A stretch of 64,000 nt of DNA from an uncultured Planctomycetaceae bacterium (GTDB taxonomy: Bacteria; Planctomycetota; Planctomycetia; Isosphaerales; Isosphaeraceae): positions 5,312,001-5,376,000 of the forward strand of contig CAWIAD010000002.1 in the NCBI GenBank assembly GCA_963833985.1, written 5' to 3'. Below are positions 2,928-61,567 of this stretch, piece by piece. Positions within the stretch are counted from its first letter, which is position 1. Each line of letters starts with the position of its first letter. The position numbers and the translations under genes are program-made. The notes below the pieces were generated by a model. It did not search any database. It was not told where the DNA came from and worked only from the letters and a program-made list of their open reading frames with translations.

Positions 2928-3775
2928 CTAATCTGCCTCCAAGGAATCAGGAAACGAGGAAAAGCTCTGGCTGCCAGATTCGTCGCGATCTGACGATGAA
3001 GAGACTCACATGAAGTCAAACCACCGATCGCGGTCACCGAGTGCCCCGGGAGGTTGCGAGAATGTAGCCTCAATAGGATCCAATGCGTTACACGCTGAGG
3101 TACCCTTGGGCCGCGAGGGCCGACCGGCCTGCCTTCGCTCAGTAAGCGACGTCAACGGTCTCCTCGCCTCTACAACCAGCCCGATCCACAGAACCACCCC
3201 GGGGCACGATCATAACAGAGACGCCCGAGCATGCGTCAAGATCACCAGGAACCACGCGTACCGACGCTCGATTCGGTCTTGGCTTGATTTCCCGGACTTC
3301 ACCGGTCCTATGACGGCAAAAGACAACCGATGGCTCAAACAAGACGCGGAATCCAAACAGATCAGAACCAGGTTCTGTTCAAGCCAAACTTAATGGGTCA
3401 TTTGCAGAATCAGACAGGCTTGGGTCGCTACCGTTCCTTTGTGCTCTTCGTGAACGCACCGATAATCACCCAGGGACGAGTCTCGTTACACCAGGGATGA
3501 AACTCAAAACTTGTACCTGGCGAACGGTTTCCGACCTATCGGCATGCCTCTAACTGCTTCGTCGGCCCTTTGTACTTTATCTCCGGCGGGAAATCCACCC
3601 AAATCAGATGATGTGACAAAAAGCACCAAGAACTTCACGCCGTCCACAACCTGATGTTGAAAAAAGTCTTCAGTGACAAGGATTCATAGCACCGTGCATC
3701 GTGAGCAGCGTGCACGGCTGCTCACTACGGGGAAGAGATTTCGGTGTCCCGCTTCCCGCATTGCGAGGGACATGT

Positions 3776-56189: not shown

Positions 56190-56388
56190 CTCTTCCTGGC
56201 ACACGTTTCCTTTCGCCTCATGCCTTCTCTCTCTTGATCCAGAAATTGGCACGATCGGAATCGTACCCCACGAGGGGAGCGCGGACGGCCCCTCTTCCTG
56301 GCACACGATTCCATTCGTGTCGGGATAAACTCACGGTCAACGAGAAACAGGATCGTCTCAAGATCTTGAGGCATCAAGGAGACACGAT
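56190..56388. repeat. REP-like palindrome cluster; last copy split by the intron
   Basis: GGCACGATCGGAATCGTACC 56248-56267; CACACGATTCCATTCGTGT 56302-56320; half-site GACACGAT 56381-56388. Confidence 0.8.
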
Positions 56389-56931
56389 GTAGAGTCGAGG
56401 TGTGGCGCGGTGGGCTCGAGTCGATGGCTCGGCTGGGCCTCGTTTCCACACCCCGCTCATCAAACTGGACGGGCGGTTTTCCCGCATCCAGCTTTCGGAC
56501 AAGGCTTGTCTCATCGGTTGAGTTCACACGTTCGCTCACGAAACCATCGCGGCTAGGTTCGTTGCAGCTGGTAAAGATGCAACTCCTGGTGCAGGTATCT
56601 GTCAGGGTAGCGTCTGAGCCCCTGACCCGGCACCTTGAACTTCGCACACAACCACTGACGTACCCGGTAGCGGACGTGGTGGTTGACTTGGCGATAGGCT
56701 GGGCTCACCGTTCCGATGCGAAAATAGTTGGACCAACCGCGTAACTTGCGATTGATCCGACCAATCTGCATCTCGACGTCCTGTCCAGTGGTCTGGCGCG
56801 TCGTCATCGCACTGATCTCGCTGCACAGCCGAATGATCTTCTTCCGCGATGGGCGTGACCCTATGTAGGATCGGCCCGTTCGTCGGTCGTAGTTCCGGCC
56901 GAGGGTATAACCCAGAAAGTCGAACGTCTCC

Positions 56932-58806
56932 TCAGGCAGGTGGCACAGCCGCGTCTTGGTCTCGTTCACCGTTAACTTCAGCCTGGACATCATCTTCCGC
57001 ATCACCGTCATGGCCTCTTCGGCCGTGCCGCGACAGCAGATGACGAAGTCGTCCGCATAGTTGACGATTCGCGCGACCAGACGCCGCTCGTGTCCACCAG
57101 TCTTCCATCCCTTCACAAATCGTCGCATGTAGATGTTGGACAACAATGGTGAGATCACGCCCCCAACAATGTTGCGAACTACGTTGTTGGGGGCCTTTCT
57201 CAAAAGGGGACGGACTGACCCGATACACGATGCGGACCTCCTGCTCGTCGATCTCGACCTTCTTCACCAAGGCCCGAACCACCTCCCGTCGCGTGGCCCA
57301 GTCCGGCTCTTGCAACCCTTGCGAGACGCGACGTGCGAACTCCTCCAACTGACCGATCACCAGTCGCAATTCCGCCTCTTGGGCGGCCTCGCCGATTCGT
57401 TGTCGATGCTCCTCCGCCAATCTCGAGAGGCGCGTCCTTGCCGCCGAGATCCGGGGCTCGAACTCCGATTTGTCGAGCAACCCGTCGCCGTAAGCATCGA
57501 TTAATCGAGAAATCATCTTTTTCACATTATTTATCAATTTGCCGAGATGCTCCACCTCCTGATTCGGCCCGCCCTGGGCACCCTGCAGCCGCCGCTCGTA
57601 CTCCTCCCGGACCCGCTCCGGCTCGGACAGGAGACCTCGTAAGTCCTCCCAGACGGCAGCGTCAAGGATATCGGTGCGGATCTGCTTGTTCCAGCAGAGG
57701 CGCTGCCCGCCGAAACGATAGGCGTCAGAGCCCGTGCAACGGTAGTACGCGTAGCGGACCCTACCCTTGCCCTCGAACGCGGCTCGGCTCGTCGGCTTGC
57801 CGTAGCAGCCGTAGCCGCAGCGCTTGCAGACGACCAGGCCCTGGAGCAGATATCGGCCACCGCCGGGCCGGTCGCGACGGCGTTGCCGGTTCTCTTCAAG
57901 CTGGGCCTGGACAGCCAGGAAGAGGTCTTCGCTCACCAGCCCGGGGACTTCAATGAAGATTTGATCTTCCGAGGATGTATCAACCCGTGAGACCGGTCGC
58001 CGGGAGTGTTCGGGGCGGCCTCGCTGCGGGCGGAGGCGTTGAGGTTTGAACTCACCTGAGCGCGTCTTGCCGAAGGCCGCGGTCCCCTTGTAGGCAGGGT
58101 TCTTGAGGATCAACCAGACCGTCGCGCAATCCCAGGCCGATTTCCCGGTCCGCGTCGGGATACTGTCGCGCCGGAGGCGTCGGCACACCTCGCCGATCGA
58201 GCACCGTTCCTGACCCACCCATTCGAAGATCTTCCGCACGACCCGGGACTCTTCAGCGAGGACCTGATAACGCGCCTCGCCACCTCCCTCGTGCTTGCCG
58301 ATGTAACGGTAGCCGTACGGCGCGCCGCTGAGGACGTTGACCGAACCGCGGCGGGCGGCGTGTTGCTTGCCCCTGCGGCAACGCTCCATGATCTTGGCGC
58401 GCTCGTATTCCGCGATCATTCCCTGGACCTGAAGCAGCAGGTCGGCTTCCGGACTGCGGCCGACGGGGTTGCGCAAGAAGACGACCTCGACACCGCACCG
58501 GATAAGTTCCTCAAGGATCAAGACCTGATAGGCATACTTGCGTGAAAGTCGATCCGGATCGAGCATATAGAGGCGGTCGATGGCTCCAGCGGCGGCTTGG
58601 TCCCGAAGTCGCTCGAGTGCCGGTCGGGCCAGGATGTAACCGCTGACGCCGTCGTCCACGAAGTGCAGTTCGGGCTCGCATTCCAAGCCATCAGTGGCGA
58701 TCCGCTGAGTGACCGCCTCGAGCTGGCTGGCGATCGTGTCCTCCTTCTCCTGCTGCTCCCCCGAAACCCGGGCGTAGAGCGCCACGCGGAGATTGTCCGT
58801 GATCAT
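56932..58806 (-). CDS. Large serine recombinase
   Basis: 'YARVS' catalytic motif, 'DDGVSG..RPALERL', 'DRLSR', recombinase domain 'LKNPAYKG', zinc ribbon 'LLQGLVVCKRCG..YYRC', coiled coil. Confidence 0.95.
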   Translation of the reverse strand: MITDNLRVALYARVSGEQQEKEDTIASQLEAVTQRIATDGLECEPELHFVDDGVSGYILARPALERLRDQAAAGAIDRLYMLDPDRLSRKYAYQVLILEELIRCGVEVVFLRNPVGRSPEADLLLQVQGMIAEYERAKIMERCRRGKQHAARRGSVNVLSGAPYGYRYIGKHEGGGEARYQVLAEESRVVRKIFEWVGQERCSIGEVCRRLRRDSIPTRTGKSAWDCATVWLILKNPAYKGTAAFGKTRSGEFKPQRLRPQRGRPEHSRRPVSRVDTSSEDQIFIEVPGLVSEDLFLAVQAQLEENRQRRRDRPGGGRYLLQGLVVCKRCGYGCYGKPTSRAAFEGKGRVRYAYYRCTGSDAYRFGGQRLCWNKQIRTDILDAAVWEDLRGLLSEPERVREEYERRLQGAQGGPNQEVEHLGKLINNVKKMISRLIDAYGDGLLDKSEFEPRISAARTRLSRLAEEHRQRIGEAAQEAELRLVIGQLEEFARRVSQGLQEPDWATRREVVRALVKKVEIDEQEVRIVYRVSPSPFEKGPQQRSSQHCWGRDLTIVVQHLHATICEGMEDWWTRAASGRANRQLCGRLRHLLSRHGRRGHDGDAEDDVQAEVNGERDQDAAVPPA

Positions 58807-59171
58807 GGTTTGTCAAACCCCCCCGACCTTGGACTGGATAGTGTGGACCACAGTCGCGTGGTTGCGGCTGGGTCGCGGCCGATCCAGGCGCTGCGAAACG
58901 ACCGGGATCAAGACCTGATATGCACGCGCGATCAATTGCTCCTGAAGCCGAGTGAACTCGAAGTGGCGGGTGACAGGAGGACTGAACGTGGGCCTCCGTG
59001 GGGACGTGATCATGTCGACTCCTCCTCTCCGAGAGCGCGGCCGCCAGCCTGCCTTGGATCGGGATCGAGTCGGGGCTGCCATCCGTGCCCGTACTTCGGT
59101 CGAAGCCGCGATCTGGAAATGACAGAGTCAGGAATCAGGGACGATTTTGCAACATTGTTGGGGGCGTGATC
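57153..59171 (-). mobile_element. 2.0 kb large-serine-recombinase mini-element with perfect 23 bp terminal inverted repeats
   Basis: GATCACGCCCCCAACAATGTTGC (57153-57175) and GCAACATTGTTGGGGGCGTGATC (59149-59171). Removal leaving one GATC restores the RT frame. Confidence 0.9.
58813..59013 (-). CDS. Small (66 aa) accessory protein of the recombinase element
   Basis: Strong RBS GGAGAGGAGGAG before ATG 59013; ends 6 nt upstream of the recombinase start. Confidence 0.6.
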   Translation of the reverse strand: MITSPRRPTFSPPVTRHFEFTRLQEQLIARAYQVLIPVVSQRLDRPRPSRNHATVVHTIQSKVGGV

Positions 59172-60426
59172 GGTGCACCTTGCGGTGTACCCATCCCCTG
59201 GTCTTTATTCCGGGTCGTTCGATGGCGCTGCCCCTTCCCGTCGGTTTCTTCCACCGGTGTTTCCAGCCACATCTTGATCAGCCGCAGGACGCGACCGTCG
59301 CTGATGCGCCGTGACGCCGATTTCATTAACTCGGAATGGGGTATGCTATCGAAATATCCAGATAAGTTCGCGTCCACCACCTCGGTGTGCCCCGTCTTGA
59401 GCAGCCGTTCGACTTCGCGGACGGCGTCCAGGGCGCTGCGCTCCGGGCGGTAGGCGTGTTGTTCCGGCTCCAGGTCGGCCTCGAAGATCGGCTCCAAGAC
59501 CAGCACCGCAGCCATCTGCACCACACGATCCTTGATGCAAGGAATGCCCAGCGGCCTTTGCTTGCCGTCCCCTTTGGGGATGTACACGCGCCGCACCGCC
59601 TGGGGTTGATACGTCTCCTTACGAAGTTGTTCCGCCAGTTCGTCCAGCCATCGTTCCTTCCCGGACGCCTCGATGTCGGCGAAACTCTGGCCGTCGATCC
59701 CCGGCGCGCCGCCGTTGGCACGGCAGCGTTCGTAGGCGAATCCCAGAACGTCACGTCGATAAATCTTGTCGTACAGGACGTAGAACCGATAGTTGGGCGC
59801 GTTCTTCGCTTTGGTGTGCAACGCCGTCTGCAACTTCCCGACCTTCAGTGGAGGTGATAGACTCACGCCAATCTCCCGGCTGTCTGCCGCTTGTTGCGTT
59901 GACCTTGAACCAAGGCCCCTTCCCTCGACCGGAGTTACCCGGCGTCGACGGTACTACGGGCCTCTCCGCCACCCCAGGCAGCCCGGCCGGTCCCTCGCGG
60001 GCGTCCGGTTGAGGGTCACGCGCCCTCACCGCTTGGGGTTTCCCGTGTTGTGTTGATCTCCGTGTGCCGACATGCCGTCGTCAATACCCCGGTGGCCCGC
60101 TGGGTTCTGATCGCTCGTGGGGCGGCCTATTCCAACCGTTTCCCTTTCATCCCCAGCGACGGCGGCCTTCCCCATATTCCAGCAAGGTCGGCGACCACAT
60201 TGGACTTTTCGAGGCCTGCTCAACGTTCACTCGCGTTACGGCCTGTCGGTTCGCTGCATCGCCAAGCGACACATCTGTCTCGAAGGCTCCGACGGTTTCG
60301 TCTCCTCCACCGCCGCTCCGATAGCTACCGGCTGGAGCGACCCAGTTGCCGGGTGGGAGTTACACCCACTGAAGACCAACACCTTTCCACGGCGCACCGG
60401 AATCGTGTCCCACGAGGGAAAAACCC

Positions 60427-61450
60427 TCAGCCCTTCGCCGCCATGGCGCTGATGCGCACCACGCCGTCGTGGTGGGCCGTGGCGAGGTGGATGCCGTCCG
60501 GGTGAAGATCCAGCGCACGGGCGCTGGTGGGGAGCGCGAACTTGAAGAACTCGCTCTCCTGGTCGGGCCGCGTGAAGAACAGGAACCCGCCGCTGGTCCC
60601 GCCGACCACGCTGATGAGGAAGCCCTCGGGATGGAAGCGCACACCCCAGGACACGCCCTTGATGTCCTCTTTGGGATGGGAGAGCGCCTTGAACGCGCCG
60701 GTCTTCCAGTCGAAGACCAGTACCGCCGGCGTGCTCACCGCGCCCAGCGGGTTGCTGGCGTTGATCAACCCGGCGCAGGCCAGGTAGGCACCATCGCGTG
60801 AGAAGCTGAGGTCGCGCACGCCGCCGTAATCGACCCCCTGCCCTCCCTCGTAGAGATGCAGCCGGGCCGCGTCAAGCCGGCGCGCTTCCTTGCCGGTGCG
60901 CACGTCCCACTGGATCACCAGCCCCATGAGGTCGGCCGAGATCAAAAACTTGCCGTCGGCCGTGTAGCTCACCTGGTAGACCGGCCGGGCATGGCCGGGC
61001 AGCTCCATCTCAAGCGTGCCGTCCGCGAGCGACCAGAGCTTGACCCGGCCATCGTTCCCGCAACTGGCGGCCTGCTTCCCGTCCGGGCGAATAGCCAGCG
61101 CCGCGCACCCAGCCGTGATGTGCCATGATCGTGCGCAGGGGTTTCGGGGCGGCGGCCGCTCTCGCATCCGCACCCGCATCCGGCCACCAGATCAGCCGGC
61201 CGTCGGTCCCGCCGCTCAGGAGCGTCTTGCCGTCGGGAGTCACGGCCAGGGCGAACACCCAGCCGTCATGCGCGGCGAAGCTCACGGGCCTGGCCCTGGC
61301 AGGATCGGCACTCCAGTCCCAGCGCACGACCGTATCGTCCTCGGAGCCGGCGAAGAGGTAGCGGCCCGTGGGATCGAACCGGCACGACACCAGCGGCTTG
61401 CCGTGCTTCAGGTCCTGCACGACGCGCGTTTTCTCAGGAGTTGCACCCAT
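60427..61450 (-). CDS. WD40 repeat protein (frameshift near 61100)
   Basis: 'HDGWVFALAVTPDGKTLLSGGTDGRLIWW', 'GHARPVYQVSYTADG'. Confidence 0.85.
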
Positions 61451-61470
61451 GGTCTGGTCCGCTCCCTCCC

Positions 61471-61538
61471 ATCTGATCTGACCCGATCTGATCTGATCTG
61501 ATCTGATCTGATCTGATCTGATCTGATCTGATCTGATC
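61471..61538. repeat. (ATCTG)n pentanucleotide tandem repeat
   Basis: Two copies at 61471-61480, then ten perfect copies at 61486-61535. Confidence 0.95.
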
Positions 61539-61567
61539 CGCTCCGCTGCCGTTGCCAGGCCGCTCGC

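Follow-up and report, generated by a model that had tools for sequence, protein, structure and literature searches.

The window analysed here is a 64,000-nucleotide (nt) stretch from the genome of an uncultured Planctomycetaceae bacterium of the family Isosphaeraceae (assembly GCA_963833985.1, contig CAWIAD010000002.1, positions 5,312,001 to 5,376,000), and unprefixed coordinates refer to it. It carries a 4,009-nt group II intron, read on the minus strand from 60397 to 56389, which is inserted in a repetitive extragenic palindromic (REP) element and whose reverse transcriptase (RT)/maturase gene is itself split by a serine-recombinase cassette. This cassette makes up half of the 4,009 nt and goes unmentioned in the first-pass annotation of the intron. 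The intron measures 1,994 nt without it, and the composite consists of this 1,994-nt intron and a 2,015-bp insert in the RT gene. The intron and its flanking exons, with their intron-binding sites (IBS), are laid out as follows.

56389..60397, minus strand: group II intron with inserted cassette (GUGCG and CUCUAC ends, identical across full-length copies; Rfam RF02003 and RF00029)
60398..60413, minus strand: 5′ exon, the 5′ part of a GTGG-tagged REP (GTGG tag at 60413-60410, IBS2 GGAC at 60410-60407, IBS1 ATTCCG at 60403-60398)
56381..56388, minus strand: 3′ exon, ATCGTGTC, which forms the 3′ stem of the REP (IBS3: A at 56388)
59171..59866, minus strand: N-terminal part of the RT/maturase gene, ending in PQGAP (RVT_1, TIGR04416)
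56553..57153, minus strand: C-terminal part of the RT/maturase gene (ISPLL, YADD, domain X), without endonuclease domain (RVT_1 and GIIM only)
56462..56494, minus strand: domain V with an AGC triad (RF00029 alignment and fold)
56395, minus strand: branch-point A in domain VI, predicted from the sequence, six nt before the 3′ splice site

The 5′ GUGCG and 3′ CUCUAC termini follow the GUGYG/AY rule of group II introns, and the same exact ends are found in all full-length copies in the genome. Rfam models place group-II-D1D4-4 (RF02003) at 60371-60231 with 98.9 bits and Intron_gpII (RF00029) at 56496-56414 with 41.2 bits (cut-off 40). Domain V and a structured domain I are both recognizable; single-sequence folds of domain I gave inconsistent results, and a consensus fold is 98.8% paired, with two-sided change at 9 pairs. 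The RT/maturase open reading frame (ORF) lies in domain IV, split in the copy at 56389-60397 and intact, at 418 amino acids (aa), in two other genomic copies; the window copy cannot make its own RT while the cassette stays in place. The protein lacks an endonuclease domain and bears YADD instead of the FADD of g2, as do class F/g3 enzymes. A quick RT tree, from which g4 and basal class F references were absent, groups it with Ni.ha.I1 (50.6% identity) and an A. caldus g3 fragment, apart from g1, g2 and D, with a support of 98 in the SH-like approximate likelihood-ratio test (SH-aLRT). Both of these references were assigned to g3 of class F by Toro and Martinez-Abarca 2013 (PMC3552965), and the class F intron Pe.th.I2 is also described with six nt between its branch A and the 3′ splice site (PMC3753933). 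On sequence grounds, the element is classed as an endonuclease-less class F-type (g3-like) group II intron and not as class C. The first-pass annotation had already doubted a class C identity and had suggested placing the RT in a phylogeny; the clade obtained, the insertion inside the palindrome and the covarying second exon-binding site (EBS2) described below all bear this out.

Excision of 56389-60397 rejoins GACACGAT to CGGAATCGTGTC, and the resulting 20-mer stands intact elsewhere in the genome (8 strand-hits at 0 mismatches). As DNA, the rejoined site adopts a hairpin fold (-8.3 kcal/mol) in which the insertion point falls where the loop meets the 3′ stem, so that both the perfect repeat copy and the position within it are as first proposed. 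The target is a 24-bp GTGG-tagged hairpin of which the genome (10.16 Mb, two contigs, C1 and C2) holds 179 distinct free copies in 77 clusters, 12 of the 179 in crude coding regions. The search behind this count returned 180 hits in the real genome against 1 in a shuffled genome at equal score. The tag at the foot of the hairpin and the many clustered intergenic copies agree with the description of REPs as hairpins bearing a GT[AG]G tag (Di Nocera et al. 2013, PMC3733652).

Thirteen insertions of the intron family are present: seven composites with the cassette in forward orientation, two with an inverted cassette (one of which also holds a 1.3-kb insertion sequence, IS), two intact introns, one split copy and one diverged copy. 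The split copy extends across two contig ends and was counted once; the diverged one is a deleted relative with the remnant of a diverged cassette, and two further cassettes stand alone. Twelve of the 13 insertions share the same base of the REP. Homology between the flanks of different copies is confined to repeat clusters (up to about 280 bp in 2-kb flanks), a single longer match being the overlap of two neighbouring copies, so that these are separate insertions. Collecting the flanks, as the first-pass annotation had advised, thus returned the outcome it had named as supportive, one recurrent repeat position, here amid unrelated surroundings; many relatives sit in other transposase-associated repeats. 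The only non-REP site keeps IBS1 and IBS2 and has no hairpin across the junction.

How this position is recognized was addressed with homologous introns gathered from GTDB genomes (75 loci, plus more from further searches). Pairing was scored on 30 different combinations of intron and exon, 29 from relatives and one from this genome, in which both EBS motifs could be parsed; tandem-intron junctions were dropped, and one row mis-parsed by a base was kept as 0/6. The segments identified, together with a second copy of the EBS1 hexamer, are the following.

60176..60181, minus strand: EBS1 UGGAAU, intron nt 217-222, terminal loop (covariation, consensus fold)
60202..60205, minus strand: EBS2 GUCC, intron nt 193-196, internal loop (covariation; left unpaired by the consensus fold)
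60084, minus strand: EBS3 U, intron nt 314 (covariation with exon position +1)
60129..60134, minus strand: second UGGAAU, in an invariant structural loop (identical in 27/27 aligned introns)

The hexamer at 60176-60181 is the top covarying segment with exon positions -1 to -5, at 79% Watson-Crick pairing and with 17 pair types. Described over all rows, it forms 143 of 180 possible Watson-Crick pairs against a shuffle mean of 80, a value that 0 of 10,000 shuffles reach. EBS2 reads G(U/A)CC across the family and pairs with GG(A/T)C at -13 to -10; its second base covaries with exon position -11 (U-A 16 times, A-T 8 times, n=30), and in three rows the pairing is shifted outward by one base. For EBS3, 12/15 introns with a known 3′ exon show pairing with +1 (A-T 10, U-A 2). 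The first-pass annotation had named the right EBS1 sequence and placed it at 60129-60134. That location is ruled out because the hexamer there is constant in 27/27 introns while their 5′ exons differ, and it forms only 49 of 180 pairs with the 30 exons. An automated EBS scan on the sites of this genome alone could not distinguish the two UGGAAU copies and relatives were needed; it was their covariation that placed EBS1, EBS2 and EBS3, the check that had been called for, and in the consensus fold EBS1 and EBS2 lie in loops.

The retargeted EBS1 has the same sequence as the invariant loop 47 nt downstream. Such an identity has a chance probability of about 1 in 12, and a chance match is plausible; EBS1 may also have been copied from the invariant loop within the RNA.

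The four-base EBS2 selects one REP subtype. GGAC stands at -13 to -10 in 13/13 occupied sites, and REPs with GGAC number 12 occupied and 54 free, against 0 occupied among 125 other REPs (p=1.4e-6, with tandem REP copies not independent). Suitable IBS1 sequences are carried by 108 of these 125 non-GGAC REPs, yet they are unused. Nagy et al. 2013 found that introns of classes E and F can splice without EBS2 and proposed that it acts in homing (PMC3753933), which fits the observed choice of subtype. Two unoccupied copies of other subtypes were found in the window by the REP search.

56248..56271, minus strand: unoccupied REP of the GGGT subtype
56298..56321, plus strand: unoccupied degenerate REP with GCAC at the IBS2 position

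The cut at the loop/3′-stem junction, with four of the six IBS1 bases in the loop, invites another explanation, in which the REP hairpin itself is read, either by class C-like structure recognition or through an extruded loop that presents IBS1. Folding energies of -7.8 to -8.4 kcal/mol at 4/12 folded sites would suit this mechanism. The remaining observations make it improbable: several other sites are weak (-1.2 to -3.8 kcal/mol), one has no hairpin across the junction, 14/17 of the relatives' sites fold at -2.9 kcal/mol or weaker and are thus mostly not hairpins, GGGT-subtype REPs with the same loop are unused, and an EBS2 is present and covaries. The hairpin is probably dispensable for targeting, because one site in this genome and most of the relatives' sites lack it.

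The close relatives (RT 79-90% identical, mostly in Planctomycetota records) keep EBS2 and display 18 forms of EBS1, that of the present intron included. Their targets were compared as 33 distinct exons (35 less two tandem junctions) with GGGGWSAS, a motif of the terminal inverted repeats (TIRs) of tyrosine-transposase genes (Di Nocera et al. 2013, PMC3733652). This motif is found within one mismatch in 25/33 targets against 19/200 GGWC-anchored controls. Extra local copies accompany 13/33 targets and 7/200 controls. Repeats that flank a Y1 transposase gene on either side and point inward match 12/33 targets and 14/150 controls, in a test on 81 sampled Y1 loci, a subset of the Y1 genes that these genomes carry. 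The Y1 genes tested have a REP-associated transposase model as best match, 3/7 above its cut-off. Target patterns of the relatives are multi-copy in their own genomes, with counts of 112, 11, 29, 46 and 1 against 1-2 for the reversed control, and a second count gave 24-100 against 7-17. The REP of the present genome, GTGGGACAC, itself fits GGGGWSAS at 7/8 positions; thus a change in EBS1 alone may have been enough to shift the intron onto it. Two distant intron groups occupy the same repeats on the opposite strand.

Some of the loci gathered show further arrangements. Introns with RT identities of about 69-72% lie in the TIR families of the close clade at another position and strand (loci L016, L017, L019 (~2999), L048 and L050 (~2989)), and L048/L049 also contain a class D intron inside. 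Head-to-tail arrays with two or three introns per target, resembling those of RmInt2, are found at L051:2968-5003, L052:934-7235 and L037:821.

The REP family is confined to 8/13 genomes of the same genus and occurs in 0/107 other genomes of the family. One same-genus genome (G009, locus L191) contains two REP pairs that enclose a frameshifted gene resembling a REP-associated tyrosine transposase (RAYT), of which the scanned piece scored 57.7 bits on NF047646, below the cut-off of 80. The source genome has seven Y1/RAYT-type genes of its own (L080-L086), most of them with a repeat family of their own on the flanks; the relative intron in L029 targets the repeats found at L081 and L083, and the repeat at L084 resembles the REP studied here. 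The intron variant tuned to the REP was detected in no other genome or metagenome contig among those searched: metagenome contigs scanned for the REP-intron junction gave 27 matches, of which 0/27 held an intron, and a family-wide junction pattern revealed no other genome with this REP exon, the intron 5′ end being present in 15/30 fetched loci.

These data are best accounted for by an intron that retrohomes to one fixed base of the REP by base pairing and not by reading a hairpin, within a lineage that specialises on the repeats of REP-type transposases; we put the probability of this reading at about 0.75. A spliced lariat-RT particle would reverse-splice into target DNA that is single-stranded at replication forks, following the route described for the endonuclease-less RmInt1 and RmInt2 (PMC4615759). 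EBS1 UGGAAU would pair with ATTCCR, EBS2 GUCC with GGAC and the EBS3 U with the +1 base. Across the lineage, EBS2 would stay on the GG(A/T)C core common to transposase repeats while EBS1 shifts to the repeat family of each host. The family would also be active at present. Intron orientation relative to neighbouring crude ORFs followed no pattern, and the GC skew of the genome is too flat for placing replichores.

Several observations weigh against such a specialised, pairing-guided intron. The introns compared are related and the EBS positions were picked on overlapping data, which makes the pairing figures descriptive. T occupies +1 in three occupied sites, two sites have two IBS1 mismatches each, and the diverged copy pairs poorly with its site. 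Among the relatives' targets, 8/33 fall outside GGGGWSAS even at one mismatch and 21/33 have no match at any sampled transposase locus; a looser test against Y1 flanks (12-mer with one mismatch) did not discriminate, with 26/33 targets and 155/200 controls matching. Most of the more distant introns (RT about 50-75%) have no such target. No cognate RAYT stands beside the REP in the source genome, as 0/7 Y1 loci are flanked by it. Finally, four public runs, searched as contigs that shared at most 0.31 of words, contained no splice or excision junction and are uninformative.

The preference for REPs also depends on the sites chosen for comparison. Matching sites within REPs are 9 occupied and 23 free, against 1 occupied and 34 free elsewhere (p=0.005). 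This is where a reading without any specialisation enters, in which a short sequence is recognised anywhere, insertions in genes are purged and intergenic repeats collect the survivors. Of the 34 free matching sites outside REPs, 25 lie in crude coding regions, and when REPs (9/23) are set against the intergenic non-REP sites (1 occupied, 9 free) the preference is no longer significant (p=0.40), a further point against specialisation. Purifying selection has been invoked for a similar pattern by Mohr et al. 2010 (PMC2882425). Purging leaves unexplained why 18 EBS1 forms repeatedly match the repeat families that flank Y1 genes, and why the targets fit GGGGWSAS beyond the four bases paired by EBS2; as the whole explanation it is unlikely. 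It is compatible with a pairing-guided, specialised intron as the selective cause. The safe-harbour proposal of the first-pass annotation accordingly holds in part: an abundant intergenic repeat is indeed used as a multi-copy target (12/13 insertions), and active avoidance of genes does not follow, since the p=0.40 against intergenic non-REP sites means that loss of gene insertions could explain the pattern.

The cassette within the RT gene has the following parts.

57154..59170, minus strand: serine-recombinase cassette, 2,013 bp between two AT cores (by comparison with cassette-free copies)
56932..58806, minus strand: large serine recombinase ORF (Resolvase, Recombinase, Zn_ribbon_recom)
58813..59082, minus strand: 89-aa ORF upstream of the recombinase, a putative gene with no family match

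Its AT cores are at 59170-59169 and 57155-57154, bordered by 20-bp perfect TIRs at 59168-59149 and 57175-57156, and it entered between the PQGAP and ISPLL codons of the RT gene. The recombinase ORF has no stop within the cassette and reads out at its right end, giving 624 aa in the window and 603 aa across the joined ends. Three recombinase domains, a 2-bp core and a defined empty site identify it as a large serine recombinase element. Among 21 full-length related cassettes in the family, 19 interrupt an RT gene at the same motif, 7 of them forward and 12 reverse, and the cassette can thus be regarded as a parasite of intron RT genes. The two stand-alone cassettes outside RT genes are at C2:5865419-5867434 (L002) and C1:1741773-1743789 (L003); in the former, the frame shifts by one base near codon 460 and the right-end core is TT, not AT.

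The distribution of the cassette over the intron copies is not random with respect to a nearby allele: 3260C occurs in 7/7 forward composites and in 0/4 other copies (p=0.003). Spread of one composite by retrohoming in trans would account for this split of allele and orientation, and there is roughly an even chance that the seven same-orientation composites spread as units of 4 kb, with RT supplied by the two intact copies. Against this stand the single-nucleotide polymorphisms (SNPs) of the copies, which are mosaic, with all four gametes at intron position 1030 and cassette position 850; recombination, or assembly polishing that mixed copies, has produced them. The alternative that the cassette reached intron copies already spread, by gene conversion or separate integrations, and that the composite never moved as RNA has somewhat less than an even chance. 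Conversion would take position 3260 along with the cassette, whose edge is 16 bp away; two stand-alone copies show that the cassette can move independently; and the diverged intron also has C at the 3260 position beside a forward cassette. Of its two routes, gene conversion alone is doubtful; the mosaic SNPs indicate exchange among copies, though polishing errors could also give them. Separate site-specific integrations alone are unlikely, because both orientations would be expected whatever the allele (7 forward and 12 reverse in relatives), yet the split here is 7/0 and 0/4.

A more far-reaching version of the specialised-intron reading can be offered tentatively: the class F clade may be a dedicated parasite of repeats of RAYTs and TIR-associated tyrosine transposases (TIRYTs), with a near-fixed EBS2 reading their GG(A/T)C core and EBS1 re-tuned in each host; in this genome most copies would have spread as 4-kb composite RNAs that bring along their own recombinase parasite, driven by two intact copies. 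The present lineage would then have jumped from non-palindromic TIRs to a canonical GTGG REP.

Other copies in the genome add detail to this picture of nested elements. The contig starts C2:1-1245 and C1:1-747 both lie within an intron copy, and the assembly break probably falls inside one composite. Within the intron copy at C2:2143754-2149057, a 1.3-kb IS (C2:2147542-2148824), whose inverted ends measure 12 bp and which is apparently bordered by a duplication of 8 bp, interrupts the 3′ part of the RT gene of an inverted-cassette intron, producing four nested layers of REP, intron, cassette and IS. The IS is tentatively ISAs1-like. The diverged relative at C2:4627313-4628477 (L004) is 1,165 nt long, has two large deletions and is set in a degenerate REP; what it retains of a recombinase cassette, likewise diverged, is the 3′ end, located at the same position of the RT gene. 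The genome also encodes a second group II intron RT, unrelated to the first (C2:4725768-4726874, 36% identical), whose PQG motif is free of any cassette. Elsewhere in the window, a short tandem run at 61434-61560 encodes DQIRS repeats in one frame and is flanked by a WD40 gene and by another ORF, presumably DUF1501-like.

Known shelters of bacterial group II introns are terminators, attC sites, stop codons and IS elements. The repeats that go with REP-type tyrosine transposases would be a further, well-resolved case. Natural variation suggests a simple rule for it, with EBS2 fixed on a common core and EBS1 variable, 18 forms being carried on one scaffold. This links two families of elements that depend on single-stranded DNA and offers a ready test of how an intron changes its target. 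If the composite does move as a unit, it would amount to a natural delivery of 2-kb cargo to many repeat sites with RT supplied in trans, and a DNA element would be spreading via the RNA of the very element that it disables. Repeat, intron and recombinase cassette would then form a three-tier chain.

Precedents were sought in the literature, in sources that also included PMC8643678, PMC12584367, PMC7923331 and 10.64898/2026.09.22.753630. By title or the start of the abstract, no paper dealt with group II introns that target REPs or TIRs or with serine recombinases that target intron RT genes, most subscription papers being outside reach. The main text of the Durrant preprint (10.1101/2021.11.05.467528) contains neither 'intron' nor 'reverse transcriptase', its target-gene domains being given in supplements, and the word 'intron' is absent from the main text of Di Nocera et al. 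2013 (PMC3733652).

Described class F/g3 introns such as Ni.ha.I1 and D.a.I1 (PMC3552965, PMC3753933) share with the present one an RT with domain X and no endonuclease, the YADD motif, a length of about 1.9-2.0 kb, EBS1 together with EBS2, and six nt from the branch A to the 3′ end; as described there they are given no repeat targets, unlike the REP-targeting intron here. Class C (IIC) introns at terminators and attC sites are likewise tied to a repeated intergenic hairpin. They lack EBS2 and insert downstream of the hairpin, whereas this intron has a covarying EBS2 and inserts within a palindrome that it seems not to need. A parallel in life style is offered by RmInt1 and RmInt2 of Sinorhizobium meliloti (class D), which are endonuclease-less, multi-copy and directed to abundant mobile-element sequence; RmInt2 is reported to insert in ISRm17 inverted repeats, with four pairs in its EBS2-IBS2 interaction, and to form head-to-tail copies (PMC4615759). 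The target here differs from theirs, being a 24-bp dispersed non-coding repeat of a RAYT system and not an IS, and the clade retargets across repeat families.

Divergence of EBS sequences and RT supplied in trans to ORF-defective copies recall TeI3/TeI4 of Thermosynechococcus elongatus, where one ORF is described as interrupted by an IS (Mohr et al. 2010, PMC2882425). The passive copies of that system are short and ORF-less, whereas the composites here would be of double length and carry a recombinase gene. A fixed position within a REP is also the hallmark of IS1397, IS621, ISKpn1 and ISPpu9/10, DNA transposons whose target is picked by the transposase; in the same survey by Tobes and Pareja 2006, a P. 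putida group II intron was REP-associated in only 2/9 copies (PMC1525189). REPtrons and TIRtrons, in turn, combine GT[AG]G hairpins or GGGGWSAS TIRs that flank Y1 genes with dispersed copies (Di Nocera et al. 2013, PMC3733652; Quentin et al. 2018, PMC6006769); the tagged hairpin and, in many of the relatives' targets, the GGGGWSAS motif recur here. Their repeats serve this intron lineage as a landing target and are not the mobile element itself.

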